64,000 bases of DNA, from the IMG/VR virus record IMGVR_UViG_3300028833_000121, positions 19,933-83,932 of that record; one strand, 5' to 3'. How positions within the stretch are numbered: the stretch's first letter is position 1; each line of letters begins with the position of its first letter. The notes beneath the pieces were generated by a model. It was given only the letters and a program-made list of their open reading frames with translations, was not told the DNA's origin and ran no database searches. Positions 1,834 through 32,953 of the stretch are shown here, piece by piece. The position numbers and the translations under genes were made by a program. Origin of the DNA: a virus (taxonomy: Duplodnaviria; Caudoviricetes).

Positions 1834-2925
1834 ATGTATAACTTCCATAATCTAGAACCACAGAAATATTGGACTTTTGGAGCAAGCGCAAAAGTAGACC
1901 CAAGAGTTGAAGCAAAAAATATGATTTTTAGCGGAAATTATATAGGTTCACGAAAAATAGACGGCGCATTTTATAAGTTTTGGAAAGATGAAAATGGTAA
2001 CATGGAACTTTTAGGACGTTCCAAAGGAGTAAATGGAGATTATCTTAATAAAATAGATTGGGTTCCACAATTAAATTCTTTCTTTGAAGTACTTCCTAAT
2101 GGAACCTGTTTAATTGGAGAAATTTACTTTCCTAATAATGAGGGCTCTAATCATGTGACTTCAATCATGGGGTGTTTAAAAGATAAGGCTATCGCGCGTC
2201 AAATGTCTGGAGATAAACTTCATTATTATATTTTTGATGTACTTGCATACGACGGTGAATCTCTTTTAGATAAAGTTATTGAAACTCGTATTCAATTTCT
2301 TCAAATGATTATGCAAACTACTTATAAAACTCATAATACCTATATTGATTTCGCTCACTATTATGAAGGAGAAGAATTATGGAATATGCTCCAAACTATT
2401 CTCGCAGATAATGGTGAAGGTATTGTAATTACAAAAAAAGGAACTTGCTACCAACCAGGTAAACGTCCAGCTCGTCAGACTCTTAAAGTTAAAAGAGAAC
2501 TCCAAGAAAGCTTAGATTGTTTCTTTACAGGGCGCGCGACTCCTCCAACTAGAATATATAGTGGTATTAGCTTGCCTAGCTGGGAGTACTGGGAAGACCC
2601 AGTAACTAAAGAGAAGCTTAAAGGTAATCATTATAGAGAATATATGAATGGCGCGCCTATTGAACCAGTTACTAAATCTTATTTTAATGGAATGGCCGGA
2701 AGTCTAGAGATAGGAGTTCTTCGAGATGGAAAAGTTTATCCGATTGGGTATCTTAGTGGACTTAGTGATGAAATTAAGAGTAACTATAAGGATTATACTG
2801 GTAAATGTTTGGAAGTAGGAGCTATGCAGTTTACAGAAGATAACGCGCTGCGCCATGCAAAAATGATTAGGCTTCGTCCTGATTTGAATATTGAGGATTG
2901 TACTTGGGAGAAATTAGGTCTGTGA
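1834..2925 (+). CDS. lig: ATP-dependent DNA ligase
   Basis: KxDG motif (RKIDGAF), GEIY, IFDVL, EGIV, LKVKR and a C-terminal OB domain. No in-frame TAG. Confidence 0.9.
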   Translation: MYNFHNLEPQKYWTFGASAKVDPRVEAKNMIFSGNYIGSRKIDGAFYKFWKDENGNMELLGRSKGVNGDYLNKIDWVPQLNSFFEVLPNGTCLIGEIYFPNNEGSNHVTSIMGCLKDKAIARQMSGDKLHYYIFDVLAYDGESLLDKVIETRIQFLQMIMQTTYKTHNTYIDFAHYYEGEELWNMLQTILADNGEGIVITKKGTCYQPGKRPARQTLKVKRELQESLDCFFTGRATPPTRIYSGISLPSWEYWEDPVTKEKLKGNHYREYMNGAPIEPVTKSYFNGMAGSLEIGVLRDGKVYPIGYLSGLSDEIKSNYKDYTGKCLEVGAMQFTEDNALRHAKMIRLRPDLNIEDCTWEKLGL

Positions 2926-3296
2926 GTAGTTATGAAGAATAGGTGGCACTTATATTAAAAAAAGAACGTATTAAATTTTAGCGTGAAAAGACATACTCTG
3001 ATTTAAAACGCGGTAAATATAGATATGATTTTTATTTGCCTACTTTAAATTTTCTTATTGAACTTGATGGATAGTTTCACTGGTATCCAATACGTGGTGA
3101 GTAGGAATTAAAAAATTAGAAAGAACATGATAGACAAAAAAATTCTTACGCACTCGCGCATAATATACCATTATTTAGAATCCCATATTGGGATTTAGAT
3201 GGCGGCGCCATCAAAACTTTTAATGACCTTATTCAAAAGAAATATCATGTAACTAGTAAATGGCATAACGATAGATTAAAAGTCCCAAAAAAATAA
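2922..3296 (+). CDS. Stand-alone DUF559/Vsr-like PD-(D/E)xK endonuclease domain (code 15)
   Basis: GTG start overlaps the lig TGA. YRYDFYLP...LIELDG(TAG)FH...HDRQKNSYALAHNIPLFRIPYW; five TAGs; TAA stop. Confidence 0.75.
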
Positions 3297-3338
3297 AGTT
3301 CTAATATACTACTTCTACTTAGTTATGAGGTGATGGTA

Positions 3339-3833
3339 ATGGGACTTTTTAAAGCTTTTGAGAGCTGGACTTTTTCTGACTTTGCTAGCTTTATTGGCGG
3401 TTTATTTATAATAGGTTCTATCATCTTTGAGGCTTTTAAAAAGGCAACTGAACGAACCGAATGGGCCAAAAAGAGAAAAGAAAAAAGAAACGCTGAAAAA
3501 AGAGAAGCTGCGAAGAAATAGTATAGAGAATTTACAGATGAATTTGTTAAAGAATTTGTTCCTCCGTTGGTAAAACCATTTGCAGAAGCAGATGAGCAAA
3601 TTATGAAATCTTTAAGTAATCTTACTAATTCTTCTAATGATATGTTGCGAAAAGAAATGACTGACATTTATTATAGATACTTACCTTATAAGAAAATTTT
3701 ATAGTATGATAAAAAATGTTTCGTTAAATTATATCATGACTACGGCGCGCAAGGCGGAAATACTTACATTGATACTCTTTGGGAAGAAATCCAAACATGG
3801 GATACAGTATTAACTGAAGATGAATTATATTAA
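3339..3833 (+). CDS. Membrane-anchored phage protein, possibly holin or lysis accessory (164 aa)
   Basis: N-terminal TM helix and basic stretch, then after TAG 3519-3521 the C-terminal domain LRKEMTDIYYRY...KLYHDYGAQGGNTYIDTLWEEI; TAA 3831-3833. Confidence 0.55.
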
Positions 3834-3840
3834 ATTATGG

Positions 3841-3860
3841 AGAAGCTAAATTTAGCTTCT
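3841..3860 (+). terminator. Perfect 20-bp palindrome, likely an intrinsic terminator
   Basis: AGAAGCTAAA|TTTAGCTTCT followed by a T-rich tract, directly after a stop codon. Confidence 0.6.
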
Positions 3861-3878
3861 CTATTTTATTATAAAAAT

Positions 3879-3907
3879 TTGAAGTTTAAACAGATTTGTG
3901 ATATAAT
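3879..3907 (+). promoter_or_regulatory. SigmaA-type promoter
   Basis: TTGAAG-17-TATAAT with TG extension and a downstream ATATATAGAAA. Confidence 0.75.
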
Positions 3908-3940
3908 ATATATAGAAAGAAAATAGGAGTGGTAGAATTT

Positions 3941-5014
3941 ATGGAATACATTATTTACTGTATTCTTGGAGTTTTACTATTATTTTTTATTATTCTCTTT
4001 TTTAAATAGCAAAAATAGAATAAATATTTATTAGAAGAAAATAAAAAAATAGAAGAAAATAAATTAGAAGAATTAAATTAGAAATATAATAAAAGAAAGG
4101 AGTCTCTCGAAGAAGATTATAATAAAAAATAGGAGTATCTTCAAGATTAGTACAAAAAAAGAGAAAATCAATTATATCAAGATTTCTATCAAGCGCAATA
4201 GAATTATAATAAAATAACTGAAAATTTAAATTAGAATTTTAAAAGATATAAAGAATCTTAGTATAAATTAATACAAGAAGATTTAGAAGAATACAGTAAA
4301 AATGAAAAATTTAAAAAATAGATTGAAATAGAAAAAAATACTTAGGAACTTTACGAACAGTATATAAAAAAACAAAAATTACTTGAAGAAGAATTTCAAT
4401 CTAAAAAAGCAGAAATAGAATCTGAAATAGAAGAAACTTATGATGACGCCGCGGAAGCCGCCTTAGAATATTGCGATATACTTGAGACTTTAGATGATTT
4501 TCGCAGACGGCGCGAGGTCGTAAATTCATAGATATTGCGCGAAAAACAAATACAAGAAGAAAAAGATTACTACCGTATTTGTTTAAGTTAGAATGATATA
4601 GAAGATTTGTAGATTATTAAAGATATAGAACATAAATTTAATAACAAAGAAGTTTTACATAGAGCCGCTTTCGATTGTTATGTGCGCCGGCCGCTATCTG
4701 AGATGGAAAAGCGGGTCTTAGGTAATAAGAAACCGAGCGGAATTTATATCATAACCTATATTCCTACTGGAGAAATATATATAGGGCGCTCTACTGATAT
4801 AGCTAACCGCTGGGTAGAGCACGTAAAGAGCGCATTTAATTTAGGTACTATCGCGCACAGCTCTCTTCATACTAAAATGGAAGAGAAAGGAATTTGGAAT
4901 TTTAGTTTTTAGATTTTAGAAGAAGTGCCAAAAGAAAAATTAAACGAAAGAGAAAAATATTGGATTAATTTATATGGCGCGACCGCGCTATTAAATTAGA
5001 AACAGGGTGGATAA
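3941..5014 (+). CDS. Membrane-anchored coiled-coil GIY-YIG nuclease (357 aa, code 15)
   Basis: N-terminal hydrophobic helix, long E/K/Q coiled coil, C-terminal GIYIITY...IYIGRSTDIANRWVEH...F(TAG)ILEE...LNEREKYWI. Fifteen in-frame TAGs. Confidence 0.8.
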
Positions 5015-6067
5015 ATGAATTTAAGTAAAAAATAGAAAGAAATAGTTGAATCACCATATTCTAAAATAGTTGTCCATGCGGCTGCCGCTAGTGGAAAAAC
5101 TACTCTTATAACTGAAAGAGTAAAATTTATGCTTTCACACGGTTGTAAACCAGAACGAATGGTTGTTATTACTTTTACTACTGCCGCGGCAGATGAAATG
5201 AAAAAAAGAATTGGCTATGTTGAAGGGTTATTTATTGGAACTATTCATGCATATGCGCTCTATCTTTTAAGTGTATATGGTTTAAATGAAAAAGCTTTAT
5301 AGTATATAAATGAAGATAAATTTGATAATCTTTTTACTATGGTAAAACGACATAAAAAATGTATTAAACCAGTAGATTATCTTATAGTAGATGAAGCTCA
5401 AGATTGCTCTGAAAGTGAATGGGAGTTTTTTGCATTAATAGATCCTGCTGGATTCTTCTATTGTGGTGACACAAGACAATGTATTTATGAATGGCGAGAT
5501 GCTAAACCAGCTGATTTTTTAGAAGTAGCTTCTTATGAAGATGTATACACTTATTCTCTTGATGAAAATTATAGAAATGGATACCGTATTCTTAATTTTG
5601 CCAAAGATATTATAACTCGTACTAAATCTCATATGTATGATGATTCAATACCAATGCGTCATACTTCAGGGAAAGTTGAATGGGTCGAATTTAACTTAGG
5701 TAATATAGCTAAATTAATTAAAAATAGTCAAGAGCCATACGGAAGCTGGTTTATACTCGCGCGCACTAATGATTAGATAGAAAGTATATAGTATATTTTA
5801 GATTCTTATCGTATACCAAATATTACTTTTAAGCGTGGTGGAAAAAGCTTTGATGAATTAAATGCTCTTACTAAAGAAGATAAAGTAAAAGTCCTCACAA
5901 TCCATACTGCAAAAGGACTTGAGGCGGATAATGTAGTAGTTATTGGAACTAGGTTATGGGGCGATGAAGAAATAAGATTAGCTTACGTAGCGGCGACTCG
6001 TGCAAGAGAAAATTTATATTGGGTATATAATAAAAAGAAAAAAGCTAATATAGAAAGTTGGGAATAA
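5015..6067 (+). CDS. Compact UvrD/Rep-like SF1 helicase (350 aa)
   Basis: Q-motif LSKK(TAG)KEIV, Walker A AAAASGKT, DEAQD, GDTRQCIY, ENYR, ARTND(TAG), TIHTAKGLE and YVAATRA. Confidence 0.9.
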
Positions 6068-6069
6068 AT

Positions 6070-6264
6070 ATGGAAAATAAAATTATTTGGTTTAAAGAAC
6101 CACTAATTAAAACGCAAGAAAATGGAATAACTATTAGCCTGATTGGGTGGTATGATAGAGGAACGCGTGCGGTATGTCGTGGTTTTATAATTTATAATGA
6201 AGATAGTTTAGATTATATTTGTGGAGTTGATAAAAATCAAATAATAGGAGATTCTAATGTTTAA
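6070..6264 (+). CDS. Hypothetical protein (64 aa)
   Basis: Open frame, tightly packed between neighbouring genes. Confidence 0.55.
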   Translation: MENKIIWFKEPLIKTQENGITISLIGWYDRGTRAVCRGFIIYNEDSLDYICGVDKNQIIGDSNV

Positions 6265-6419: not shown

Positions 6420-6443
6420 AGAAGTCAATTAAATTTGACTTCT
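6420..6443 (+). terminator. Intrinsic terminator overlapping the -35 of the gyrB promoter
   Basis: AGAAGTCAA-ttaaat-TTGACTTCT followed by a T run. Confidence 0.65.
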
Positions 6444-6463
6444 TTTTTAATTTATGATATAAT
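6435..6463 (+). promoter_or_regulatory. SigmaA-type promoter of the gyrase operon
   Basis: TTGACT-17-TATAAT with TG extension. Confidence 0.8.
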
Positions 6464-6497
6464 ATTTATAGAAAAAGAAAATAGGAGAGTATACGAT

Positions 6498-8348
6498 TTG
6501 AGTTATACAGTTGATGATATTAAATCTCTTTCTTTTAAAGAAGGAGTGCGCCAACGAATTCAAATGTATTTGGGTTCTAATGATTTAGATGGAACTTATC
6601 AAGCGCTGAAAGAAATAATAAATAATTCTACTGATGAAGCTATTGCTGGGTATGGTAAAAGAATAGAAGTATATGTATCTGAAAAAAATAATAGAGTTGG
6701 AGTAAGAGATTACGGGCGCGGAGTACCATTCGGAATTAGAGAAGATGGAGAAAATGTACTAGTATCCATCTATTCTAAATCACATACTGGTGGTAAATTT
6801 GAAGAGGGCGCATATAAAAATGCCAGTGGTCTGAATGGCATTGGTGCTAAATGCGCGTGTCTTAGTGCGGAATATTTTGAAGTTACTTCATTTAGAAATG
6901 GAAAATTTGCAAAAGCTTTTTTTTCTAAAGGAAATTTAGTTGAGTACGTAGAAGGAATCACTGATGCGGCGGATGGTACATATGTAGTCTTTGTACCCGA
7001 TAAAGAAGTATTTAGTAATGGAGAAATAGGATATAAATACTCTAAAATTTGCGAAGATTTAAAGAATATTTCATATTTATATAATGGAATTACTTTTTAT
7101 ATTAAAAATGATGATACAAACGAAGATAAAGAGTATTGCGCGAAGAACGGAATTAAAGATTTTATAAAAGATAATTTATCTACTCCTTTACATCGTACAA
7201 TTCAATATAATAAAGTTAGCGATGGCGTAGATGAATTAGAGATTGCTTTCCAATGGGGTGCAAAGAAAGAAACCTCTTACGTATTTGTTAACGGCTTGCT
7301 TTGTCCAGAAGGCGGCAGTCCAATAACTGGCGCGAAAACAGCTATCACACGTACATTTAATTCTCTTTCAAAACAAGATTTTGATGGAGATGCGATTAGA
7401 AATAATTTATTCTATGTAATTAATTGCTCTGTCGCGCAACCTTCATTCGCAAATCAAACTAAGTCTAAAATTAATAATACAAATCTTCGTACTCTTGCGT
7501 CAAATGCTTTTAGTGAAGCACTTAAGCAAATGAAAATTAAAGTTCCGCAAGAATTTGATGTAATTGTAGAGTTGCTTAAAAAGGTAGCTCGCGCGGAAGC
7601 CGCGGCGGAGAAGGCGCGTCAGCAAGTTCTTAACGCTTCAAAAGAAATTGAAAAGAATCAAAAGAAAAAGGTTTTTGCATCTGATAAGTTGAAAGATGCG
7701 GAGTTTCTTGGGCAGGACTCAACTCTTCTTATTGTTGAAGGTAACAGTGCTATGGGTGGTATGGCTCAGGCGCGCGATTATAAGAAGTATGGTATCTTAG
7801 CAATTAGAGGTAAAATTATTAATTGCTTATCAAATCCCGAAGAGAAGATTTTTGAGAACGAAGAAATTAAACTTCTTTTGAGCGCGATGAATATCGTACC
7901 AGGAAAATATAATAGTTCAAAACTTCGTTATGGCCGTCTTGCAATTTGTACTGATGCAGATAGCGATGGATACCATATTGGACTTCTAATTATGGCTGCG
8001 CTTACCTATCTTGCGCCGCAGTTTATTAAAGAAGGTCGTTTGTGCTGGTTGCGCTCACCGCTTTATATCGTCAATAACGGTAAGCAAGAAAGTTATTATT
8101 TTGACGATGCAGAGTTTAACGCTGTGCGCGGTAAGATTAAAGGTGAAGTAACGCGCGCGAAAGGTCTTGGTGAATTACCGCCTGAAACTGCGCGAGCATC
8201 TATGTTTACTGAGCAGTATCAGCGCATGGAAGCTATGGAATATAGCGATGAAGCATTAGGTTTACTATATGATTTAATGGGTGAAGATGTAAAGAGTAAA
8301 AAAGATTTTATATTTAATAATATTGATTTTTCGGAGATAACAGAATGA
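6498..8348 (+). CDS. gyrB: Type IIA topoisomerase (gyrase) subunit B
   Basis: GHKL motifs EIINNSTDE, DYGRGVP, GGKF...SGLNGIG; TOPRIM motifs EGNSA, RGKIIN and DADSDG. TTG start after an AGGAG RBS. Confidence 0.93.
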   Translation: MSYTVDDIKSLSFKEGVRQRIQMYLGSNDLDGTYQALKEIINNSTDEAIAGYGKRIEVYVSEKNNRVGVRDYGRGVPFGIREDGENVLVSIYSKSHTGGKFEEGAYKNASGLNGIGAKCACLSAEYFEVTSFRNGKFAKAFFSKGNLVEYVEGITDAADGTYVVFVPDKEVFSNGEIGYKYSKICEDLKNISYLYNGITFYIKNDDTNEDKEYCAKNGIKDFIKDNLSTPLHRTIQYNKVSDGVDELEIAFQWGAKKETSYVFVNGLLCPEGGSPITGAKTAITRTFNSLSKQDFDGDAIRNNLFYVINCSVAQPSFANQTKSKINNTNLRTLASNAFSEALKQMKIKVPQEFDVIVELLKKVARAEAAAEKARQQVLNASKEIEKNQKKKVFASDKLKDAEFLGQDSTLLIVEGNSAMGGMAQARDYKKYGILAIRGKIINCLSNPEEKIFENEEIKLLLSAMNIVPGKYNSSKLRYGRLAICTDADSDGYHIGLLIMAALTYLAPQFIKEGRLCWLRSPLYIVNNGKQESYYFDDAEFNAVRGKIKGEVTRAKGLGELPPETARASMFTEQYQRMEAMEYSDEALGLLYDLMGEDVKSKKDFIFNNIDFSEITE

Positions 8349-8835: not shown

Positions 8836-9042
8836 ATGCTTAAAGAAGATTATGAAAATTATAATATCCATGATATTGAAATGGAGATAGCTCGTAAACC
8901 TCTTAAAATAATAGAACCATCATATGAATATTTAATAGGTTTTTATGATGGTATTTTTTGTGAGCAAGGCCAATTTGAATTAAGCTATGATTACTTAAAA
9001 GGATTTTATGAAGGCGTGAAAGTGAGGAAAAGTAATAAATGA
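8836..9042 (+). CDS. Hypothetical protein
   Basis: 68-aa ORF coupled to the next gene by ATGA. Confidence 0.5.
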   Translation: MLKEDYENYNIHDIEMEIARKPLKIIEPSYEYLIGFYDGIFCEQGQFELSYDYLKGFYEGVKVRKSNK

Positions 9043-9485
9043 GTGAAGATATAATTTATTTTTCTTTTAATAATTGGTTTAGCGGTAGAGATTATCCTAT
9101 TGGAAATAAATATGAAGAATTAATAAATTCTCATAAATTTAGTGATAAAAATTGGGTTAAAGAAAATAAACTTGTTGTAGTAGCTGGTAATATTGATATG
9201 TCTGTTAATTGGTGTATCGCTGCGCCGAGAAAATGGGTAGAAGAAAATTTGCCAGAACTTTTAACTGATGAAGAATATAATTATGATATTATTTCTTATT
9301 ATAAAGGTGAGAATACAGTAACTACATATACAAAAAAATATAGTGATTTTGTATACCCTGGGACTCCTTGGGAATGTAAATATGGTATGCCTTTTAAAGA
9401 ATATGATGAAGAAGCAGTAGGTGTATATTACGTAGAAGAGGATGAGTGGGAATGGAATGATGATGAAGAGGATGAAGAAGAATGA
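9039..9485 (+). CDS. Hypothetical protein with an acidic tail
   Basis: 148-aa ORF coupled to gyrA by ATGA. Confidence 0.6.
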   Translation: MSEDIIYFSFNNWFSGRDYPIGNKYEELINSHKFSDKNWVKENKLVVVAGNIDMSVNWCIAAPRKWVEENLPELLTDEEYNYDIISYYKGENTVTTYTKKYSDFVYPGTPWECKYGMPFKEYDEEAVGVYYVEEDEWEWNDDEEDEEE

Positions 9486-11836
9486 GTGAATTAAAACCAG
9501 TAATTGAACAATCTTTCGCGCAATACGCAGGCATGGTAATTCAGTCTCGCGCACTTGTTGACGCGCGCGATGGACTTAAACCTTCTGCGCGTCAAATATT
9601 CTATTCAATGCTTCTTCATAAACTCACCCATAATAATCCATATAAGAAAACTGCTAATGCTGTTGGTATGGCTATGGCAGATTTCTATATTCATGGTGAT
9701 TCAAGCTGTGAAGGAATTATTATGCGCGCCGGTCAGGACTTTGCTATGCGCTATCCGCTAGTTGAAGTAAAAGGTAACGTAGGTTCTCCTATCGAAAGTG
9801 GTAACTGGGCTGCTTCCCGTTATACAGAATCTCGTCTTTCTTCTATTTCTAACCTTCTATTTACTGATATTGATAAAGATACAATAATAGAATGGAGAGA
9901 TAGCTATGATAATACAAAACAGTATCCGGCGGTTCTTCCATCTAAAGGATTCTATAATCTTTGCAATGGAACGCAAGGTATTGGTGTAGGTTTAGCTAGT
10001 TCTATCCCGCAGTTTAATTTAAAGGAACTTAATAATGCGCTTATTAATCTTATTCAAAATCCGGATTGCGATTTTGATGATATTTACTGCGCGCCCGACT
10101 TTGCCACTGGTGCAATTCTACTTAATGCAGATGAAGTAAAAGAAAGCTTACGTGTTGGTAATGGGCCAGCTTGTAAGTTGAGATCTGTAGTTGAATTTGA
10201 TACGGGTGAGCGGTGTCTTGTAGTAAAAGAAATTCCGTATAGCGTTTATACAAATACTATCTGTAAGCAACTTGAAGAACTTGTAGAATCAGAAGAAAAC
10301 CCTGGAATTGAACGGTTTAATGACTTAACTGGTGCGACGCCTTTGATTAAGATTTACCTTACAAAGAAAGCAAATCCAGACAAGGTATTAAAATATTTGT
10401 ATAAAAATACTTCGCTCCAGTATTACTATGGCATTAATCTTACTATGCTTGATGGTGGTAAGTATCCTAAAGTTTTTACATGGCGCGAAGCTCTTCAAGC
10501 GCATATTGATCACGAGAAGGTTGTATATCGTCGTGGTTTTGAATATGATTTAAATAGGATGAAGTTTCGTGTCCATATTATAGACGGACTTCTCATATGT
10601 ATCGCGCGCATTGAAGAGGTTATTCAGACGATTAAATCTTCGAGTTCTACCGCAGAAGCAAGCGCGCGACTTCAAAAAGAATACATTCTTGACGCCGAGC
10701 AAGCTAAGGCAGTACTAGACCTAAAACTTAGCCGATTGGCGCATCTTGAAGTAACTAAGCTGAACGGCGAAAAAAGTGACTTACTTAAAAAAATTGGTGC
10801 AATCGAACAAATTTTAAATGACGAAATCCTATTTAATAACGAGCTTATTAAGGGATGGAAAGAAGTTGCTGCAAAATATGGTGACGCGCGCCGTACACGC
10901 ATATTAAATATTTCAAAAGAAGACGAAGAAGAACCAGCAGAAGTTCGCAATCTAATTCTTAATTTTACGAATAAAGGCGGAATCTATGTAACTGAAAGTT
11001 CTTCTCTTTACACACAACGTCGTGGCGGAGTTGGAAACAAATTTAAAATGGAAAAAGGAGAATATATTGTTGGTACTGAAATTGGAGATAATACCGATAT
11101 AATACTATTCTTCTCTGATAAAGGAAATTTCTTTCAAATTAAAATGAGTGAGTTTCCTGTAAATGAAAAAACTTATATAACTCAATTTATTACTATGACA
11201 GCAACAGAGTCTATCTGTAACGCGGCCGTCTACGCAAAGAACGAGAATAAAAATATTTATTTTATTACAAAGAACGGGCTTCTTAAAAAGACTCTATTAT
11301 CTGAATATTACCTTAAACGTGGAAATAGCGCTCGCGCAATAAATCTTGATAATGATGATGAAATTGTAAGCGTTTTCTTTGGGAACGATGGCCTTGATTG
11401 TGGTATTCTTAGTAGTGATGGAAACTTCATCATGTTTAAAACCGATGACGTTAAACCTATTGGTCGTATCGCACGAGGTATAAAAGCCATTAAACTTAAT
11501 GAAGGAGCTTTCGTACAAGACGCGCGGCCCATTCCAAAAGAAACAAAAGCTATTATATCCGTAACTAAAAATGGCCTTACAAAACAAACAAATATAAATG
11601 AATTTTCATATACTAATAAAAATACAAAAGGTTCTAAAATTCAAGGTTTAACGACTAATGATATGGTAGTTTCTTTTGACGCATTGGGCGCCGAGACTGA
11701 AATTATTGTTACATCTACTACATCACAGATACGAGTTGCAGCCGCAGAAATTCCGATGCTTTCTCGTTCCGCGCAAGGAGTTCACGTAATAAAACTAAAG
11801 CCGGTTGAACGAGTAATTCAGATAGAGAAAATTTAA
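9482..11836 (+). CDS. gyrA: Type IIA topoisomerase (gyrase) subunit A
   Basis: DGLKPSARQI, HGDSS, catalytic AASRYTE, beta-pinwheel repeats and a GyrA-box-like QRRGGVG. No TAG. Confidence 0.93.
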   Translation: MSELKPVIEQSFAQYAGMVIQSRALVDARDGLKPSARQIFYSMLLHKLTHNNPYKKTANAVGMAMADFYIHGDSSCEGIIMRAGQDFAMRYPLVEVKGNVGSPIESGNWAASRYTESRLSSISNLLFTDIDKDTIIEWRDSYDNTKQYPAVLPSKGFYNLCNGTQGIGVGLASSIPQFNLKELNNALINLIQNPDCDFDDIYCAPDFATGAILLNADEVKESLRVGNGPACKLRSVVEFDTGERCLVVKEIPYSVYTNTICKQLEELVESEENPGIERFNDLTGATPLIKIYLTKKANPDKVLKYLYKNTSLQYYYGINLTMLDGGKYPKVFTWREALQAHIDHEKVVYRRGFEYDLNRMKFRVHIIDGLLICIARIEEVIQTIKSSSSTAEASARLQKEYILDAEQAKAVLDLKLSRLAHLEVTKLNGEKSDLLKKIGAIEQILNDEILFNNELIKGWKEVAAKYGDARRTRILNISKEDEEEPAEVRNLILNFTNKGGIYVTESSSLYTQRRGGVGNKFKMEKGEYIVGTEIGDNTDIILFFSDKGNFFQIKMSEFPVNEKTYITQFITMTATESICNAAVYAKNENKNIYFITKNGLLKKTLLSEYYLKRGNSARAINLDNDDEIVSVFFGNDGLDCGILSSDGNFIMFKTDDVKPIGRIARGIKAIKLNEGAFVQDARPIPKETKAIISVTKNGLTKQTNINEFSYTNKNTKGSKIQGLTTNDMVVSFDALGAETEIIVTSTTSQIRVAAAEIPMLSRSAQGVHVIKLKPVERVIQIEKI

Positions 11837-11853: not shown

Positions 11854-11882
11854 TTGAATTTTTATTAAAATTCTGATATAAT
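11854..11882 (+). promoter_or_regulatory. SigmaA-type promoter
   Basis: TTGAAT-17-TATAAT with TG extension, followed by ATTTATAGAAA. Confidence 0.8.
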
Positions 11883-14284: not shown

Positions 14285-14313
14285 TTGACTTTTTTCTAAT
14301 TCTATGGTATAAT
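14285..14313 (+). promoter_or_regulatory. SigmaA-type promoter
   Basis: TTGACT-17-TATAAT with TG extension, preceded by a hairpin at about 14251-14280. Confidence 0.8.
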
Positions 14314-20298: not shown

Positions 20299-20323
20299 CT
20301 TTTTATTAAATTTATGATATAAT
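20295..20323 (+). promoter_or_regulatory. SigmaA-type promoter of dnaE
   Basis: TTGACT-17-TATAAT with TG extension; the -35 overlaps the upstream TGA. Confidence 0.8.
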
Positions 20324-23300: not shown

Positions 23301-23975
23301 CGTCCATATACATCAATAAGCGACTTAATCTCTAAAGTAAAACTCAAAAAGCCACAAGTAATAAATCTTATTAAAGCTGGCGCTTTTGATGAATTTGGAG
23401 ACAGATATAGCTTAATGGAATCTTATATTGAAACTATTTGTGACGCAAAAAAGCGCATAACTTTGCAGAATATGCAAATGATGATTAATTTTAATATGAT
23501 TCCGGAAGAATATAATTTCCAAGTTAGAGTTTTTAATTTTAATAAGTATTTAAAAAAGTGTAAATTTGATAATAAATTTTACTTTTTAGATGAATATAGT
23601 TTTCCTTTCTATGAACAAAATTTTGATATGGATTTATTAGAAAATAGAGATAATATATTCTTCTTGTCGATATTAAAATGGGATAATATCTATCAAAAGC
23701 AAATGGATATTATTCGTCCATGGATAAAGAAAAATGCAGATGAATTATTAAAAACATTAAATGGATATTTAATGGGTGAAACTTGGAATAAGTATTGTCT
23801 TGGCTCTATCTCTAAATGGGAAATGGATAGTACATCTTGTTACTTCCATGCGCATGAACTTAGTAAAGTAGATTATGATTGGTATGGCTTTGATGACTTC
23901 TTCGAATTGCCTTTAACTCCAGAAATAGAAAATCAAATAAGAATTAAAAATAAATTAATTCCTATTTTAGATTAA
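20355..23975 (+). CDS. dnaE: DNA polymerase III alpha subunit (family C)
   Basis: PHP motifs HTHTDYS, TDHE and TTDSHY; PGRGSG; catalytic DVDFD; GIHAGG; GFNKSH. Ends at TAA before the OB domain. Confidence 0.92.
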   Translation: MEYTGSIHTHTDYSNIRLRDCIIKLEDGIAYAEKLGHKVIGITDHEFTGSWVKAKRIAKKHPDIKVILGNEIYLCRNGLNVQNYNREYDRYFHFILLAKDREGARQIMEISTRAWKRSYMARGMRRVPTYYQDLFDIIGANPGHVIGSTACLGGALPTQLLRYRDSKNEQLKEKIAIWVQQMSSLFGDGNFYLELQPSKNKDQIYVNQRLLDISNATGIPYIITTDSHYIKKEDRIIHKSYLNAQNGDREVDEFYATTYMMGTEELESFFSYLSREQLDKAYSNIENIMNMCEEYSLEKPLRIPNLKWHSFLSYKEEYPKWFELIPALEKFNKSQYPADRQLVAAIISGIKSHPDVQNEEAYKEINLCLEDTWVSSEVNKTQWSAYYLNLQNIIDVCWEADSIVGPGRGSGVGFILLYVLDITQINPMREKTKTYRWRFLNPARVSVLDVDFDIEGSKRAQVLSKFREVYGEDYVANVATFRTEKSKSAILTAARGLGIDVDIAQYIASLIPADRGLLRSLDQCMYGDVENNFSPIKQFVYEMTENYPELWQVAHGIEGLICGSGIHAGGIIFVDEPFTESTALMRAPDGTICTQFELHDSEAVSLIKYDALSVEAMDKIHNCINLLCDYGYAERKNSLKETYENIIGVYNIERDAPDMWKMVWNHEIQSLFQMEKQSGIAGIALLKPTSVDDLATLNSVIRLMAQEKGGEMPTNKLARFKANPELWDKEMENWGLSENERAILHKELDTSYGICESQEGFMQLVQTPECGGFDLTWADRLRKSIAKKNPKEFDQLTEEYYQNIKDKNLSRNLCDYVWKVLVAYSRGYGFNKSHTLAYSLIALQEMNLAYKYPIIFWNCACLINDAGGDEMTEDEETIFEETAEVSWNNEIEDFTGSEDEDDDDDDEEEVKDKKKKKAKKINYGKISSAIGKMKMEGINISPPDINKSIFTFSPDPEKNVIRYGFSGITGLGDDAIREIINNRPYTSISDLISKVKLKKPQVINLIKAGAFDEFGDRYSLMESYIETICDAKKRITLQNMQMMINFNMIPEEYNFQVRVFNFNKYLKKCKFDNKFYFLDEYSFPFYEQNFDMDLLENRDNIFFLSILKWDNIYQKQMDIIRPWIKKNADELLKTLNGYLMGETWNKYCLGSISKWEMDSTSCYFHAHELSKVDYDWYGFDDFFELPLTPEIENQIRIKNKLIPILD

Positions 23976-24316
23976 GTAGAATTTGCGGCACAGTTCTTGA
24001 TAGAGATAAGAATAAAAAGAATGTAACATTATTAACTCCAAGTGGAGTAGTAACAGTTAAAATTTATGGCGATGCATTTTCTCATTATGATAAGCAAGTA
24101 TCTGAACGAGGAGCCGATGGGAAAAAACATGTAGTTGAAAAGTCTTGGTTCCATCGTGGTAATAAGATTATCGTAACTGGTATCCGTCAAGAAGATGGGT
24201 TTTTGGCTAAGAAATATAGTCGAACTCCATTCCATTTAGTAGAACTCATAACTAATATTAATGAAGATGGAACTATTGATTCCCGTGGCGAACGCATGGA
24301 GGTTACAGAACATTGA
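23954..24316 (+). CDS. dnaE: C-terminal OB-fold segment of DnaE, in the -1 frame
   Basis: LSRICGTVLDRDKNKKNVTLLTPSGVVTVKIY...GNKIIVTGIR...TGA has no start codon of its own. It joins the main frame if one T is added to CCTATTTTAG. Confidence 0.7.
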   Translation: MNSYFRLSRICGTVLDRDKNKKNVTLLTPSGVVTVKIYGDAFSHYDKQVSERGADGKKHVVEKSWFHRGNKIIVTGIRQEDGFLAKKYSRTPFHLVELITNINEDGTIDSRGERMEVTEH

Positions 24317-25392
24317 TAATTGGTTTATGGGATGCGGATTTTATGAAATATAAGTAGCCAGTTTTCAATTTAGAGCTTATGAAGCTGGCTACTTATTATA
24401 AACAAAAAAAAGATATAGTTAAATTGGCTCCAATATTTGACCCTTATAAATATACAAAGTTTATTTATCGGAAGGACTGGGATGATGGCGATTATCCTAA
24501 AGAAATTTTTTTAAATAATGTAGTGTATGGCGGGCGCGCCTTTGGGGGAAAATATAAACCTTTAAGCTTAGATATAGAGCGTGTCCAACCAGATACTTAT
24601 CTATATCAAGCATTTAGTAAAGAATTTCATGGAATGTAGCTAAGTTATTTTAATATGATGTAGAACTCTGCACATATTAGACTTTCTTTAGATGGGAAGA
24701 CAATTTGGCAAGATTATAAGAAAAGTTTTACTTTTAACAGTAAAACTCGAAGTTTCTTTTTCCATGATTATGATTTGAATAAAATACAAAATAGCGCTGA
24801 AGAAATTAAATAGCTAATTGAAAGTGATGGTAGTAAGGTTGGACGTTTTGTAGGAATGAAATTCCCAGTTCAAGTCAATAATAAAGCTGACTTAGCGCAA
24901 TGGTTGGCTCTACCTGGCGCGCAGGTATATTATTCAATTCAATATAATGGAATTATGGATGAAGAAGCTTTCAAAGTTTTTCTTTCTGGAAGCGAGCTAT
25001 AGAGCCGTAACTTAGACTATATCGTAACTGCTTCACTATCTGGAGAGGATGATTTTATAAAAAATGGGTTACCAATAATTTATAAATAGCTCTTAATTTC
25101 ATAGATGCATAAAAAAAGAATTCTACTTAAATACGAAGATGATTTTTTCTAGGATAAAAGATGGGAAGACTTAATCGAGTATTTAAATGAATATAATAAA
25201 GCGGACGTCACACGCAGAAGCAAGGTATCAAAAACTCTTTTTTATTATACCAGTCATATATTAGATAAATAGAGTATGTATAAACCTAGATTCTCACGTG
25301 ACTATATAGCTGAACTTTTTGAAATGGTAAGAGAAAAAAATTATGATGTGTTTAAAATGTTTTATGAAAGTACGGGAGGAGATTTTGTATGA
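24313..25392 (+). CDS. Uncharacterised 359-aa protein; N-terminus resembles that of phage radical-SAM proteins
   Basis: TTG start; MIIGLWDADF...FNLELMKLATYYK; nine in-frame TAGs; no CxxxCxxC motif. Confidence 0.6.
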
Positions 25393-25785: not shown

Positions 25786-27717
25786 ATGAATATTAATATT
25801 AGACTTGATAAAAATTTTACAACTTAGTTTAATAAGTTGCAAGAAAAATATGGTGAAGAGTTCGCGCGCCTTAATGGTTTAAGTGATGAGCAACTTTCTT
25901 ATACGGATTTTATTTCTAATTTTATTGAATCAGAGACTGTCGCGGACGCTTCTGTAGATAGTAACGCTAATGTTGGTCATAAAGATATAGTAACGCTTCT
26001 TAATGAAATGCCTAAGCCGCATAGAAAACTTCTTGCGCTTCGTAAGATCTATTATGAAATGAATAAGACTTATGGCTTTAAGATTGCTAACGATTGGCTT
26101 GAGAAAGAGTGGTCGCGCGCGCTTTATATGCACGATGCAGATACTTCTACTTTTAAGCCTTACTGCTATGCTTATGACCTTAAAGACCTTGCCGAGCGCG
26201 GTCTGTTTTTCCTTGAAGGATTTAACGCTGAGCCGCCAAAGCACCTTGGAACCTTTATTGATTTTGTAAAAGAATTCATTAGCTATAATGCTAATCGTAC
26301 TTCTGGCGCTTGCGGCTTACCTAATCTTATTCCTTATATGTATTATTTTTGGAGCCGTGATGTAAAGAATAATTATTTTACTCGTGACCCCGAAAGCTAT
26401 GCAAGACAGCATATTCAGCGCTTTATCTACGCAGTCAACCAGCCATGCGTGCGCGATGGTATGCAAAGTGCGTTTACTAATACTTCTATTTTTGACCACG
26501 AGTATCTTATGGCACTTTTTGGCGGTTCTATCTTCCCTGATGGCAAATTTATGGTAGATGAAATCGAAGGCATTATGGATTTCCAAAAGTTATTTATGGA
26601 AGTAATGAGCGAGATTCGTGAGCATAATATGTTTACTTTCCCAGTTAATACTATTTCTCTTTTGAAAGTGAACGGTGAGTTTAAAGATGAAGAGTTCGCG
26701 CGCTGGGCATGTCGGCATAATATGAAATGGAGCGATAGTAATATCTTTGCAGATAGTAGCGTTAATTCACTTTCTAATTGCTGCCGCTTAAAAAGTAATA
26801 TTGAAAATCTTGGCTATTTTAATTCCATTGGCTCTACTGCACTTCGTGTTGGTAGTGTAAAGGTATCTACTATTAATCTCGCGCGCATCGCTTATGAAAA
26901 CAAAACAGAGCGTGAGTATTTAAAGGCTCTTCAAGAGATTACTGAGTTAGACCTTAAGGCGCTTGATTGTGTACGTCATATTATTCAGCGCAATATTGAG
27001 AAGGGACTTCTTCCTAATTACTGCGACGGCTTAATTGATATTAATACATAGTATAATACGATTGGCGTGCTTGGTGTTTATGAAACTATGCGTGCGTTTG
27101 GTTATACAAAGCAAGATGAGCTTGGTAATACTTATTATACGGAAGAAGCATATAAATTTGGAGAAAAAATCTTTAAAGTAATTCATAATACTAAAGACCT
27201 CTTTAATATTGATAAAGATTATAGAATTAATCTTGAAGCAGTTCCCGCAGAACAAGCTGCTGTTAAAATGCAGAAAGCAGACGAAATGTTATATCCAGAA
27301 GTAGTAGTAAAAGATTTGCCGCTTTATGGTAATCAGTTCTTACCGCTCGGTATTAAGGCTACTCTTCAGGAACGTGTTCGTATTGCTAGCACTTTCGACA
27401 GTTATTGTAATGGCGGCTCCATCTTGCACGTAAATATCGAAGCGCCATTTACTAATTTCGATCAAGCCTGGAAGATGTTGAATTATATTACAGATGCGGG
27501 CGTTACTTATTTTGCTTTCACAACAAAAATACAAGCTTGTAAAAATAACCACGCTTTCTTTGGAAAGGTTTGCCCAGTATGCGGTGAACCAGTAGCTACA
27601 GAATATAGTCGTATCGTAGGATTCTATACTCCAGTTCGTACATATTCAAAAGAGCGCAAAGCTGAATGGTAGATGCGTGAGTGGGAGGATGTAAATGAAA
27701 ATCAAATACTTAGTTGA
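25786..27717 (+). CDS. nrdD: Class III anaerobic ribonucleotide reductase without an ATP cone (643 aa, three TAGs)
   Basis: SNCCRL, GSVKVSTINL, EAVPAE, GGSILH, CPVCG and the glycyl-radical motif SRIVGFY. Confidence 0.9.
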
Positions 27718-28201
27718 AGAAGATTTTGTTAATTACAAAAAACCTTCGCTATTTATCGGATTTCCTACTTGTAGTTTTAAATGCGGAGAAATGAATTGCT
27801 AGAATAGTTCATTAGCTCGCACGGAAGATATTGAAATTTCTAAAGAAAGTATTTGTGAAAGATATAAAAGTAATGAAATAACTGAGGCTTTTGTCTTTGG
27901 TGGTTTAGAACCTTTTGATAGCTTTATGGATTTAATAAGTCTTATAGATTGTATTAGAAATAAATATAATATTAAAGATGATATTGTAATCTATACTGGA
28001 TATACAAAAGATGAATTAGAAAAAGGCCAATTTGGAAAAGATAGTGAAGTATCAAAAACAAATTATAAATATTTAATAGATACATATAAAAATATTATAA
28101 TTAAATTTGGTCGTTATTATCCTAACCAAACTGCACATTTTGACGAAATTCTCGGAGTAAATCTTATAAGTAATAATCAATATGCGGAGAAAGTTTCATA
28201 A
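27695..28201 (+). CDS. nrdG: Class III RNR activase (radical SAM)
   Basis: FPTCSFKC...NC(TAG)NS, GGLEPF, IYTGY and KFGRY. Confidence 0.85.
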
Positions 28202-29424
28202 TGGAAAATACCAAAGGATTAGATAACTTTATTAATTCAACTCTTGGCCTCGGGCATGGCTATTTAGCTAAAATGCTCGAACTAGAAGAAGAGCGTCAAG
28301 AACGAAATATTGAATTAATTGCTAGTGAAAATTATGCTTCTGAAGCAGTTAGGTTAGCTATGGCTTCTTGTTTAACTAATAAATATGCTGAAGGCTACAG
28401 CGGAAATAGATTCTATGGTGGCTGTGAATATATAGATAAAATAGAAGATTGTTGTAAGTAGACCTGGCAAAGAGTATTTAATACTGACTATAGTGTAAAT
28501 GTATAGCCGCACAGCGGTACACAAGCTAATCTTGCTGTTTATAACGCACTATTAAAACCAGGAGATACAATATTTTCATTAGACCTAAACAGCGGAGGCC
28601 ATTTGTCTCATGGCTCATCAGCCAATCTTAGCGGTAAAATATATAAAAGAATAGCTTATTCTGTTGATGAAAATGGATATATAGATATGGACCATATTTT
28701 TAGTGTTATTTTACGCGAAATACCAAAACTAATTATAGTTGGCGCCTCTGCATATCCACGTCAAATTAATTTTAAATGGATAAAAGATATAATTGACGCT
28801 TATAGACCCAAATTTAATATCTATCTTATGGCAGATATAGCGCATATTGCTGGATTGGTCGCGGCCGGTGTACACCCAAGTCCATTCGGATATGCCGATG
28901 TAGTTACAACTACTACACATAAGACTTTGCGCGGTCCACGCGGTGGTTTAATCTTCTGTAGACCAGAATTGGAAAAGAAGATTAATAGTGGTGTATTTCC
29001 TGGTACACAAGGCGGCCCATTAGAGCATGTAATACTTGCTAAAGCAGTCTGCGCGGAAGAAGCATTAAGACCCAGTTTTAAAGAATACATTAAGTAGGTA
29101 GTTTCTAATGCCAAAGAAATGGCAGATACCTTTGTCGAATTGGGATATGATGTAGTGACTGGTGGAACGGATACTCATTTATTCTTAATTGATTTTTCTA
29201 AAACACATCCAGATCTTACAGGGCGCGCCGTGTAGGAAGAATTAGACAAATATGGTATAACTCTTAATAAGAATTGCGTTCCTAATGAAAAAAGAAGTCC
29301 TTATTTAACAAGTGGTATCAGAATTGGTACTCCCGCCATGACAACGCGCGGTTGGAAAGAAGCAGACTTTTAGAAATGCGCACTTAAAATAGATAGTATA
29401 ATTAAAAATTTGACTAATAAATAA
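28201..29424 (+). CDS. glyA: Serine hydroxymethyltransferase (407 aa, five TAGs)
   Basis: LIASENY, NKYAEGY, NV(TAG)[18 protein letters not shown]-lysine [14 protein letters not shown] and [14 protein letters not shown]. Confidence 0.95.
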
Positions 29425-29438
29425 AAATATGATATAAT
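29410..29438 (+). promoter_or_regulatory. SigmaA-type promoter
   Basis: TTGACT-17-TATAAT with TG extension, overlapping the end of glyA. Confidence 0.75.
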
Positions 29439-29464
29439 ATTAATAGTAGGAGGAAACTATAGCT

Positions 29465-30292
29465 ATGGAAAAATTTGGTTTTGGCGTAGCTCCTTCTAAA
29501 ATAGATTTGCGCGATTATCGTGCTAAATTTAAAGGAGTTGCTACTGCTAAGTAGTTCCCCGCAGTATTTGAATTACCAATGCCTGCGGTTAAAAATCAGC
29601 ATGATGTAGGTAGTTGCGTCGCGCATTCATTATCTACAGCAATCGAATATTTTAATACTGTTGAAACCGGAGAAAATAGGACTATGAGTACCGGATATAT
29701 CTATGGCAACCGGCGCGGTAGTTCTTGGAAGGGAGAAGGTATGAGAGTAAGAGACGCACTTAAAAATGCGTGTAGTTATGGAGACGTTTAGAAATATCTT
29801 ATGCCCGCGAATGTTGAAGTTCCGGAAGCTATTACTATATTCGAATCAAATATAAATTAGTTAAAGCCCTACGGGGTAAAAAACAAGATTGCTAAGTTTT
29901 TTAAACTAAATGGCGCGGCCGCGATGAAACAGTGCCTTATGGAACATGGGCCGTTACTTGTTATTGTAGAATGGCATAGCGACAATTAGCTTAGAAACGG
30001 TATCTTAACTATTAGTAATAATAAGGATACTCTTGAAGGACAGCACTGTATGGTTTGTTATGGTTGGAATCAAAAAGGTTGGATGATACAAAATTCTTGG
30101 GGCAGTACCTGGGGAGATTTAGGCAGAACAATTATTCCATTTAATACTAAGTTTGTTGAAGTTTGGGGTATTTCAGATTCTAAGAATATAGAGAATGATG
30201 GATTAAAGATTAAAAAACCATATCAAAGCGAATTGGGCTAGAAGTTAGCTAAAGGACTTAGTGATTTATTAAATAATATTTTAAAGCGTTAA
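29465..30292 (+). CDS. Papain-like (C1A) cysteine peptidase (275 aa, five TAGs)
   Basis: VKNQHDVGSCVAH (oxyanion Gln and catalytic Cys), GQHCM (His) and IQNSWG (Asn). Confidence 0.85.
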
Positions 30293-30310
30293 AAGGAGTC
30301 ATATTTCTTA

Positions 30311-30967
30311 ATGATTAAGGTAGAAAATATAGAGATTTTTAATTTCGATGGTGCTATGAGAGGATTGCGAAATCCAATGAATAGTTGGGATAAGAGCGAT
30401 AGTTATACAGATGAAATTGGAATTTTTAATATTGGTTCTAATGATATGAAGCTCGCGCAACGTATGTTGAACGGCGGTCCTGAAGAATCTAAATTTATGC
30501 GGCAGATAATGATAAGTATGGATATAGATGCCCCTATTTTTTGGTGGAAAGAAATGGACACCTATAAAGTAGGAACTACTGCTAATTCATGCTCTACAAT
30601 GCACAAACTCACAAGCGAAGAAATCAGCGCGCAAAACTTTTCATTCATTAAACCAGAAGAATTTGAAGACCAATATAATCAATATTTTATTAAAACCGCA
30701 CAAGAAGAAATTATTCAATATTGTGAAATTCTTCGTAAAGCATATAATAAAACAAAAGATAAACGCATATGGCGCGCACTCATAGAAATCTTACCTGAAG
30801 GATGGAATCAGCGTCGCACATGGACAGCAAACTACCAAGTTTTAAGAAATATTTATTTCCAGCGTAGATTTCATAAATTAGACGAATGGAGAGAGTTCTG
30901 TAAGATAATTGAAGGATTACCTTATGGAAAAGAACTTATTTGTTACGAAAAAGCGAAAAAGGAGTAA
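30311..30967 (+). CDS. Divergent ThyX-like (thymidylate synthase complementing) protein
   Basis: AMRGLRNPMNSW, KFMRQI...APIFWWKEMDTYK...NSCSTMH, LPEGWNQ and QRRFHKLDEW; canonical RHR motif absent. Confidence 0.55.
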   Translation: MIKVENIEIFNFDGAMRGLRNPMNSWDKSDSYTDEIGIFNIGSNDMKLAQRMLNGGPEESKFMRQIMISMDIDAPIFWWKEMDTYKVGTTANSCSTMHKLTSEEISAQNFSFIKPEEFEDQYNQYFIKTAQEEIIQYCEILRKAYNKTKDKRIWRALIEILPEGWNQRRTWTANYQVLRNIYFQRRFHKLDEWREFCKIIEGLPYGKELICYEKAKKE

Positions 30968-30973
30968 ATTATT

Positions 30974-31318
30974 ATGACAATTAATTACAAAAATAAATTT
31001 TATATTTATCACCCCGATGGGAAATTTACAGAAGAACAGCTTATGAAAATTCTTGATGCGGCGTACAATATGGGAAAGAATGAAGGTTATAATAACGGAT
31101 ATGAAGCCGGCAGAAAAAGCAATATGACTATTACTTATCCATATTATAATACACCGACTTGGGATTGGACCAAAGTAACCTGTAATTCTACAAGCGGAGA
31201 TGCGGTTATTCCAACTGTAACAACAGCAGCTTCCAATAATCCGCCCAGTATAACTACTACTGCTACTACTACTAATAATATATGCCGGGAGTTTAAGTAT
31301 AATGGAACAGAAAGATAA
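30974..31318 (+). CDS. Hypothetical protein with a Thr-rich tail
   Basis: 114-aa ORF with a GGAG RBS. Confidence 0.55.
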   Translation: MTINYKNKFYIYHPDGKFTEEQLMKILDAAYNMGKNEGYNNGYEAGRKSNMTITYPYYNTPTWDWTKVTCNSTSGDAVIPTVTTAASNNPPSITTTATTTNNICREFKYNGTER

Positions 31319-32225
31319 TATCGTTGAAGAAGTAAAAAAAGAGGTTAACCCTATTACTGATAGCTTTGAAGCAATCTCTAAAATTATGGTCGGAGACGAA
31401 GGAGTAGAAGACGCAACCGCTATGTTTGGCGCGCTGCTCTCTATGCCAGACGATGAATTTAAAGATGTTTCTACAATTCTTTTAGACGAAATTAATCGCT
31501 CTCTAAATACTCCCGCTGAAAGAATTGCACTTGTAGCAGCAATGACTGCATAGGGTTATACTGGTGATGATTTAACTGATACATTTCAAGAACTTTGTAA
31601 TGAAATAGATACACAACTTACAGATTTATCTCAAATTAAGCGCGATTGGCTTAAGCAGTTAATGGGAGCTGTTACTAATGCAATTAATGAAACAGAAGGA
31701 ATTTCTAAGAGATATATTCGAATCCCATACGAAAAGTGCCACAAAGATGCAAAAACACCTGCTTACGCCCATGAGACAGATTCTGGTATGGATGTATTTG
31801 CCCTTGAAGATATTACTCTCGCGCCAGGCGAGCAGAAGATTATTCCTATCGGTATTAAGGTCGCGCTTCCCGCCGGCTATGAACTACAAGTTCGCCCGAA
31901 GAGCGGTGTAAGTGCAAAGACCAAACTCCGCGTTGCTAATGCCCCTGGTACTATTGATGCCGGTTACCGGGATGAGATAGGGGTTATTATTGAGAATGTA
32001 GAACCGCCTATCCGCTCTATCGCAACTGATTTTGCTGAATCTCCCAATGATTTCATTCCAGTAGGCGCAATTGAATTCGGTCGTTCTTATACAATCGGAA
32101 AGGGTCAAAAGTTTGCGCAGTTAGTTCTTTCTGAAGTACCAAAAGCAGTACTATATGAGGTAGAAAGCGTAGGTGAAATTGGCGAAGACCGCGGAGGCGG
32201 GTTCGGCAGTACTGGCTTAAAGTAA
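31302..32225 (+). CDS. dut: Trimeric dUTPase with a ~120-aa acidic N-terminal extension joined through one TAG
   Basis: SGMDV, RPKSG, PGTIDAGYRDEI, AQLV and RGGGFGSTG. 31302 and 31662 are in frame across TAG 31551-31553. Confidence 0.85.
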
Positions 32226-32227
32226 AT

Positions 32228-32953
32228 ATGGGTGTAATAAAAATAGAATCTATCTAGCAAGAGTTACCAGAAGGTTGGAAACTCATTTCAACCTCGTATA
32301 AAAACTTAGATAGTGGTCTAGAGTTTGAATGCCCAGCCGGTCATAAGGTTTATGCTAGTTGGAAAAAGATGAGAACGCGCGCCGAATGCCCAATTTGCAA
32401 AGAAAAGGCGCCACTTATAGATAATACTGTGATTCCAAAAAAGAAGGGTGTTTACCGCACAATCGGTATTGACCAAGCCACACATATAAGTGGCTATTCA
32501 GTATATGACGGGAAAGAACTTGTTAAATTTGGAACCTTTACAGTAAATGAAACAAATGAAATAGAACGTGACAACACAATAAAAATGTGGCTGTGTTCTA
32601 TTATAAATAATTGGCAACCCGACGTAATAGGGCTTGAGGGTATTCAATTCCAACAAAATGCCGCGCGCAATATAGGAATTACAACATTTGAAACTCTCGC
32701 ACGATTATAGGGTATACTTATGGAAGCTTGTTATGAACAAAAGGTAGCTTTTGTAATATGTCCTACAAATACATGGCGCGCGCATTGTAAAGTTAAAGGT
32801 CAAACTCGTGAAGCTAAAAAGAATTCAATGAGACAGTTAGCGCGCGAGTGGCATGGAATTAACGCTAGTGAAGATGAGGCAGATGCTATTGGCATTGGAA
32901 AATACGTTGCCGAGACATACGGTCTTGTACACCAACTTCAAAGTTGGGAATAA
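32228..32953 (+). CDS. RuvC-like Holliday junction resolvase with an N-terminal zinc ribbon (two TAGs)
   Basis: CPAGH...CPIC, IGIDQA, LEGIQ, TLARL(TAG)GIL and DEADAIGI. Confidence 0.75.

Follow-up and report, generated by a model that had tools for sequence, protein, structure and literature searches.

Graded use of TAG as a glutamine codon across the genes of a ruminant-gut siphophage and its recoded relatives

When a phage reads the amber codon TAG as glutamine (Gln), which of its genes carry that codon, and does its distribution act as a lock on gene expression? This question is raised by IMG/VR record IMGVR_UViG_3300028833_000121, an 83,932-bp viral contig that CheckV estimates to be approximately 65% complete. 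The window discussed here (bases 19933-83932 of the contig; 64,000 nucleotides) belongs to a ruminant-gut siphophage, roughly 120 kb in size, that decodes TAG as Gln; the sequencing runs in which it occurs were made from gut samples of sheep, goats and cattle. A first-pass annotation of positions 1834-32953 had proposed three tiers of gating: a replisome readable in host code, recombination and deoxynucleotide (dNTP) genes lightly locked by a few TAGs, and heavily locked late genes. We find an intermediate class of genes that is conserved as a class, within what is better described as a gradient, and we favour (with a probability of about 0.6) the reading that TAG density is set by purifying selection against TAG that is graded gene by gene. 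The evidence does not support a purpose-built three-step lock.

Protein families were identified using Pfam and PHROGs, and in-frame TAGs were counted per gene under TAG=Gln, in the window and then in the whole contig. Read in this code, 1834-32953 (+) is a replication and nucleotide-metabolism block and 33274-63687 (-) is a virion block with the tape measure, Dit, Tal and head-tail genes (Table 1). Long open reading frames (ORFs) require TAG read-through, including those for the tape measure (2600 amino acids [aa]) and Tal (1756 aa). In late loci of relatives, coverage by long ORFs rises from 0.14-0.5 to about 0.9 when TAG is read through, and in the closest relatives 15/16 and 32/39 TAGs align to Gln of homologues. 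TGA is the stop codon of 9 of 32 genes in the early block versus 1 of 20 in the late block, and several of these TGAs lie within ATGA overlaps of coupled genes. The top match of DnaE in the phage database is to SPbeta-like Bacillus phages (37% identity).

A per-gene recount agrees with the TAG numbers of the first-pass annotation: none in the genes for ligase, GyrB, GyrA, DnaB, primase and DnaE (the replisome core), one to five in those for the AAA_24 / Sak4-like ATPase (AAA24), RecJ, UvrD, the RuvC-like protein, NrdD, NrdG, GlyA, the dUTPase fusion and the peptidase, and many in most structural genes (0.43-0.75 of Gln codons). When the counts are expressed as fractions, however, the group with one to five TAGs divides: RecJ, dUTPase, AAA24, NrdD and RuvC are low (0.05-0.15), whereas UvrD, GlyA and the peptidase are already at late-gene level (0.45-0.57). 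Heavily recoded genes are found in the early block as well (the GIY-YIG endonuclease, the HNH endonuclease at 2898-3296 and the ORF at 24313-25392). A uniform distribution, modelled as a single binomial class, is rejected outright in this genome. Three classes (0.6%, 20% and 54%) slightly outperform two by the Bayesian information criterion (BIC; 280.7 versus 281.5), and the likelihood ratio of 9.1 between them was exceeded in none of 60 parametric bootstraps.

A single-stranded DNA-binding protein (SSB) had also been listed among the TAG-free genes, and this label does not hold: no SSB is confirmed in the window. The ORF at 14343-14879 has no Pfam or PDB sequence match and contains a CxxC...HxxC motif; its structural model is helical with a zinc ribbon and has no OB fold. 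This ORF is conserved across the phage family, and it may encode a helicase loader or replication organiser. Another SSB candidate, at 9039-9485, contains no Gln codons, so its lack of TAG is uninformative.

Relatives were collected by a DnaE search, which returned 32 IMG/VR loci, and a tail-tube search, which returned 80 more. Genes of ten whole TAG-recoded relatives were called under TAG=Gln and joined in a reciprocal-best-hit table; start codons were called naively, and ORF extension yields some artefact TAGs. Across the family, the core is nearly devoid of TAG: 0/475 Gln codons in DnaE, 0/210 in GyrB, 0/98 in ligase, 1/273 in GyrA (this sole TAG sits in an ORF-extension artefact), 3/249 in DnaB and 1/114 in primase. 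With the zinc-ribbon ORF included, core genes of the ten relatives hold seven TAGs, three of which are such artefacts. The claim that the replisome core can be read in host code thus extends to every TAG-recoded relative examined. Family totals for the sparsely recoded genes (hereafter the low class) are 12/201 for RecJ, 11/248 for NrdD, 7/41 for NrdG, 8/113 for AAA24 and 7/102 for dUTPase.

Classes were set on the window and then tested only in eight distant genomes, where TAG accounts for 4/1072 Gln codons in the core, 19/492 in the low class and 256/650 (~39%) in late genes. The difference between core and low class (Fisher p = 5e-7) replicates out of sample, which shows that an intermediate class exists and that, as a class, it is conserved. 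Among pooled orthogroups a two-class model is rejected, with the BIC falling from 510 to 404 on addition of a third class, but four or five levels (0.4, 5.7, 16, 35 and 46%) fit better than three, indicating a gradient. Of the proposed tiers, then, the middle one survives statistically, while their number, part of their membership and the lock itself do not. RuvC is at late level in every relative (49/81 in distant ones), and UvrD has high TAG only in the clade of the window (5/99 in distant relatives).

Synonymous codon usage supplies a neutral expectation for these densities. In late genes the TAG/CAG ratio is 5.8, compared with 8.1 for leucine TTG/CTG (the corresponding synonymous first-position T/C ratio), and CAA/CAG is 4.2, compared with a third-position A/G ratio of 3.6 for lysine and glutamate. 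Late TAG use is close to what codon bias predicts, suggesting that TAG acts there as a neutral synonym. Core genes share the T-over-C bias (TTG/CTG of 7.9), which predicts many TAGs, yet almost none are seen, and this points to strong purifying selection. Low-class genes fall between, with TAG/CAG of 0.35 versus 2.3 expected, indicating partial avoidance.

Under graded selection, the replisome core (ligase, GyrA/B, DnaB, primase and DnaE) would be made by unmodified host translation, which would make TAG effectively lethal there and hold its density near zero. The Sak4-like ATPase, RecJ, NrdD/G, dUTPase and UvrD would be auxiliary or needed later, and TAG only mildly harmful in their genes; CAG-to-TAG changes would arise, drift and be lost, leaving a sparse and strain-variable density of 2-15%. 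In most late genes TAG would be a neutral synonym at the level of AT-biased codon usage (about 40-55%), and the most abundant virion proteins would avoid TAG again, probably since suppression is slower or leakier than ordinary decoding.

The last of these steps concerns the tail tube protein, identified by its PHROG and its fold. Unlike its late neighbours, this gene lacks both TAG and CAA, favours codons ending in G (AAG and GAG) and reaches a GC content of 0.43, a codon usage that suggests selection for efficient translation; in the family TAG makes up 3/82 of its Gln codons. A putative capsid gene in relatives has 0/124, and its neighbour 0/60. TAG avoidance thus also tracks protein abundance, and a TAG-free gene is not necessarily an early one. 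These genes, rich in GC and CAG, would suit an account in which expression level or base composition alone determines avoidance, with no link to timing, as would the negative correlations of TAG fraction with CAG fraction (rho -0.41 to -0.69 in five genomes) and with GC content at third codon positions (rho -0.22 to -0.55). We nevertheless judge this account highly improbable. DnaE, DnaB and primase are AT-rich (GC 0.28-0.34), prefer CAA and are unlikely to be among the top-expressed proteins, yet have no TAG, and NrdD is more conserved and higher in GC than ligase, yet carries TAGs. Across orthogroups, TAG fraction correlates weakly with GC content (rho -0.34, p = 0.07) and with protein conservation (rho -0.36), and we rejected either as sole cause; the first-pass annotation had named local AT content as a potential refutation.

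Transcription does not separate the classes. An extended -10 promoter family (TTGAnn, 14-16 nt, TGnTAnAAT), which looks like a host sigma-A/sigma-70 extended -10 type, has seven near-consensus copies in the window, all on the + strand. The copies occur only in intergenic regions, are oriented toward the downstream gene and have an 'atatatagaaa'-like tail. They precede ligase, GIY-YIG/UvrD, GyrB, the operon containing AAA24, the operon of the zinc-ribbon ORF, DnaB, primase and RecJ, DnaE, and the operon from the peptidase to RuvC. One promoter type drives both TAG-free and TAG-rich genes, so we infer that any gating would be translational and hang on build-up of the decoder. Low-class genes sit between core genes within the same operons, which implies that selection acts gene by gene. 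Consensus scans for terminators and promoters gave counts not above those in shuffled sequence, and only the near-perfect extended -10 family was retained. Run X3 includes RNA contigs for parts of the region, but these are unable to rank genes or show timing.

If sparse TAGs in low-class genes had a regulatory role, their presence or position might be expected to persist; the first-pass annotation had taken conservation among relatives as the check. Neither persists. In AAA24, RecJ, NrdD, NrdG, dUTPase and RuvC, sites flip between TAG and CAG/CAA in relatives with 92% and 83% identical DnaE. AAA24 of relatives has 0-3 TAGs, at sites other than codon 110, and both RecJ and AAA24 lack TAG in several genomes. 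The sole TAG of RecJ is specific to this strain: window base 19102 is C (CAG) in contigs of runs X3, X4 and X5 (three other samples), and codon 545 is likewise CAG in two close relatives whose DnaE is 92% identical. In some relatives one or two TAGs have been gained by the zinc-ribbon ORF, by the ThyX-like gene or by the ORF at 12312-13247. In the distant genomes 15 of 35 low-class genes have at least one TAG, as random scatter over Gln codons predicts (14.4 +/- 1.5). No C-terminal excess of low-class TAGs, as siting that tolerates truncation would give, was found; 13 of 45 lie in the first tenth of the gene (Kolmogorov-Smirnov p = 0.014), some perhaps as a result of naive start-codon calls.

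These observations bear directly on the proposal that selection maintains the handful of TAGs in recombination and dNTP genes to serve as a deliberate middle gate. In that model, full-length yield scales as suppression efficiency raised to the power of the TAG count, and genes with 1, 5 and 80 TAGs switch on in turn as the decoder accumulates; at an efficiency of 0.9, yields for 1, 5 and 84 TAGs are 0.90, 0.59 and ~0. The arithmetic does yield stepped thresholds and the intermediate class is real and conserved, but with the turnover described above, the change of class of RuvC, UvrD and HNH between relatives, and a similarly variable presence of TAG in NrdG and dUTPase in the phAss-1 group (PMC10607447), we consider a selected gate unlikely. 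Several points nonetheless weigh against graded selection, and some of them for the gate. TAG-rich GIY-YIG and peptidase genes lie directly behind the same host-type promoters as DnaE, which implies control at the level of translation and is as compatible with gating as with neutrality. Low-class genes with at least one TAG number 10 of 10 in the two nearest relatives, versus 8.1 expected (P = 0.065), which leaves some chance of weak selection for TAG presence in this clade. The timing of expression is something we infer from gene function only, and the cost of suppression is likewise deduced. Finally, no tRNA(CUA) was found in the contig (~65% of the genome), either by ARAGORN at default, relaxed and intron settings or by BLAST with tRNA(CUA) sequences of relatives.

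A tRNA with anticodon CUA is present in relatives G002, G003, G005 and G006. In G006 it heads a tRNA array (7136-7283, -) and has its own host-type promoter, approximately 40 nt upstream as measured from the -10 element; the decoder is thus probably transcribed by host RNA polymerase. Two complete TAG-recoded genomes with terminal repeats, G001 and G004, have no tRNA(CUA) even at relaxed settings; G001 carries two tRNA-Gln(UUG). Release-factor genes (PF00472) were found neither in this genome nor in four relatives. A sigma-factor-like gene (PHROG 5767 only, with no Pfam match) is located at L120:8690-10093 in G001, with orthologues in G002-G006 and G010, and is absent from the incomplete contig studied here. 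Situated immediately upstream of the terminase and portal genes, it contains 4-15 TAGs and has a host-type promoter in 4 of 7 genomes; it may make late transcription depend on amber suppression. One could go further and regard TAG count as a built-in translational timer, in which host RNA polymerase reads the replisome, the suppressor tRNA and TAG-laden genes from a single promoter class, proteins appear in order of TAG count as suppression rises, and the sigma-factor-like gene is the checkpoint that releases late transcription. We offer this as speculation with little chance of being correct; if it were true, the few TAGs of the recombination and dNTP genes would set a delay that can be tuned and that is specific to each strain.

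A different kind of explanation is historical: TAG load would reflect how recently a gene or module was acquired from a standard-code source, together with a gradual spread of TAG from late into earlier genes, and the replisome core would be the part most refreshed by exchange with standard-code relatives. Code switching in this family is evident. The standard code applies to replication and late genes alike in many relatives whose DnaE is 62-69% identical, and standard-code relatives seldom terminate a gene with TAG (16 of 457). In the DnaE tree, phages of the two codes are intermingled: the standard-code G012 (L020), whose TerL is stop-free, branches within the TAG clade, so there has been more than one code switch. 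The clade of the window has four times the low-class TAG density of the distant genomes (19/121 versus 19/492, p = 1.4e-5), GlyA, UvrD and HNH differ sharply between clades, and ongoing TAG accumulation has been published (10.1101/2023.08.07.552389; PMC7886860). On the other hand, core and low-class genes adjoin within shared operons, and still the difference between them is consistent across all genomes, and DnaE has 0/475 TAGs despite divergence to ~66% identity, ample time for CAG-to-TAG changes. We therefore doubt that history is the principal determinant of TAG density, and retain graded selection as the preferred reading.

Some features stand apart from this argument. The HNH endonuclease at 19231-20298 is free of TAG here, whereas its closest counterparts in relatives carry 4-8 TAGs and other homing endonucleases of the window are TAG-rich; it may have arrived recently. 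Three genes, 12312-13247 (+), 33726-34436 (-) and contig 3490-5001 (-), have a GC content of 0.42-0.46, use CAG almost exclusively for Gln and have few or no TAGs; the last encodes a DUF2828/vWA (Ro-like) protein and adjoins the tRNA array. PDB sequence searches with the ORFs at 12312-13247 and 30311-30967 gave no match. DnaE is ~4.7 kb instead of 3.6 kb in several standard-code relatives (L018, L019, L022-L025 and L027), and is split into two ORFs in G002, suggesting intein or intron insertions.

Table 1. Features of the window, with TAG counts relative to all Gln codons under TAG=Gln (window coordinates unless marked as contig).
Feature	Position	Strand	TAG/Gln codons	Remarks
ATP-dependent DNA ligase	1834-2925	+	0/11	Pfam PF01068
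HNH endonuclease	2898-3296		5/7	early block
GIY-YIG endonuclease, then UvrD-like helicase	3929-6067	+	15/28 (GIY-YIG)	
UvrD-like helicase	5015-6067	+	4/7 (0.57)	
GyrB	6435-8348	+	0/19	listed TTG start overlaps promoter; true start probably slightly downstream
GyrA	9482-11836	+	0/25	
AAA_24 / Sak4-like annealing ATPase	13261-14229	+	1/7 (0.14)	TAG at codon 110
Zinc-ribbon and helical protein	14343-14879	+	0/5	overlaps dnaB start
DnaB helicase	14869-16431	+	0/20	frame overlaps primase
Primase	16421-17473	+	0/9	
RecJ	17470-19212	+	1/20 (0.05)	TAG at codon 545/580 (19102-19104); gene overlaps primase gene
HNH endonuclease	19231-20298	+	0/11	
DnaE (Pol III alpha)	20355-23975	+	0/42	30 CAA, 12 CAG
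359-aa protein between DnaE and NrdD	24313-25392	+	9/18	late-gene level
NrdD	25786-27717	+	3/20 (0.15)	
NrdG	27695-28201	+	1/4	
GlyA	28201-29424	+	5/10 (0.50)	
Papain-like peptidase	29465-30292	+	5/11 (0.45)	
ThyX-like protein	within 29465-32953	+	0/10	
114-aa ORF	within 29465-32953	+	0/1	
dUTPase fusion	31302-32225	+	1/10 (0.10)	
RuvC-like protein	32228-32953	+	2/13 (0.15)	
Late/virion block	33274-63687	-	0.53 (pooled)	0.43-0.75 in most genes
Tape measure	50909-58711	-	84/165	
Tal	within 33274-63687	-	47/74	
Tail tube (major tail) protein	59628-60500	-	0/8	Gln all CAG
Promoter copies	1726-1754, 3879-3907, 6435-6463, 11854-11882, 14285-14313, 20295-20323, 29410-29438	+		near-perfect consensus
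Further promoter copy	contig 5108	-		same family

The phage lineage described here is new, the phenomenon is known, and our results are a quantitative refinement that leaves the early/late concept unchanged. That partition was reported for stop-codon-recoded gut phages by Borges et al. (10.1101/2021.08.26.457843) and Yutin et al. 2021 (PMC7886860); replication genes with variable recoding, recoded genomes in which no suppressor tRNA can be detected, code switches at short range and continuing accumulation of TAG have likewise been published, and Gln at TAG has been demonstrated by proteomics in crAss-like phages (PMC9523058). With the phages of Borges and Yutin, the present lineage shares TAG as Gln, TAG-free replication genes, recoded structural genes, a suppressor tRNA in relatives, close standard-code relatives in which TAG is a rare stop codon, and code switches over short evolutionary distances. 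It differs in being a ruminant-associated siphophage whose genome encodes DnaE, gyrase and an SPbeta-like tail tube; moreover, density is quantified here per orthogroup as a graded series, and TAG-rich and TAG-free genes are interleaved in single operons rather than placed in separate blocks, which is useful to know for gene callers that assume block-wise dual coding. The family-wide picture of how amber reassignment spreads is one of an untouchable replisome core, a zone in which TAG is tolerated but selected against, and a neutral zone to which abundant virion proteins are the late exception, and it supplies concrete candidates for asking whether code switching times phage gene expression.

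Two further systems are instructive. The proposed Phassvirus group, which includes phAss-1, is TAG-recoded, comparable in size and encodes Pol III alpha, a tape measure and numerous tRNAs; only some of its members have TAG in the genes for the NrdG-activating protein and dUTPase (PMC10607447); the window does not belong to a close relative (its best DnaE match is SPbeta, at 37%), and that paper gives no class-level statistics. In persisting infant-gut phages, TAG accumulates in situ over short timescales by mostly synonymous changes (Lou et al., 10.1101/2023.08.07.552389). Whereas those data follow single populations over time and concern mainly late genes, the turnover seen here is from strain to strain and affects recombination and nucleotide genes.

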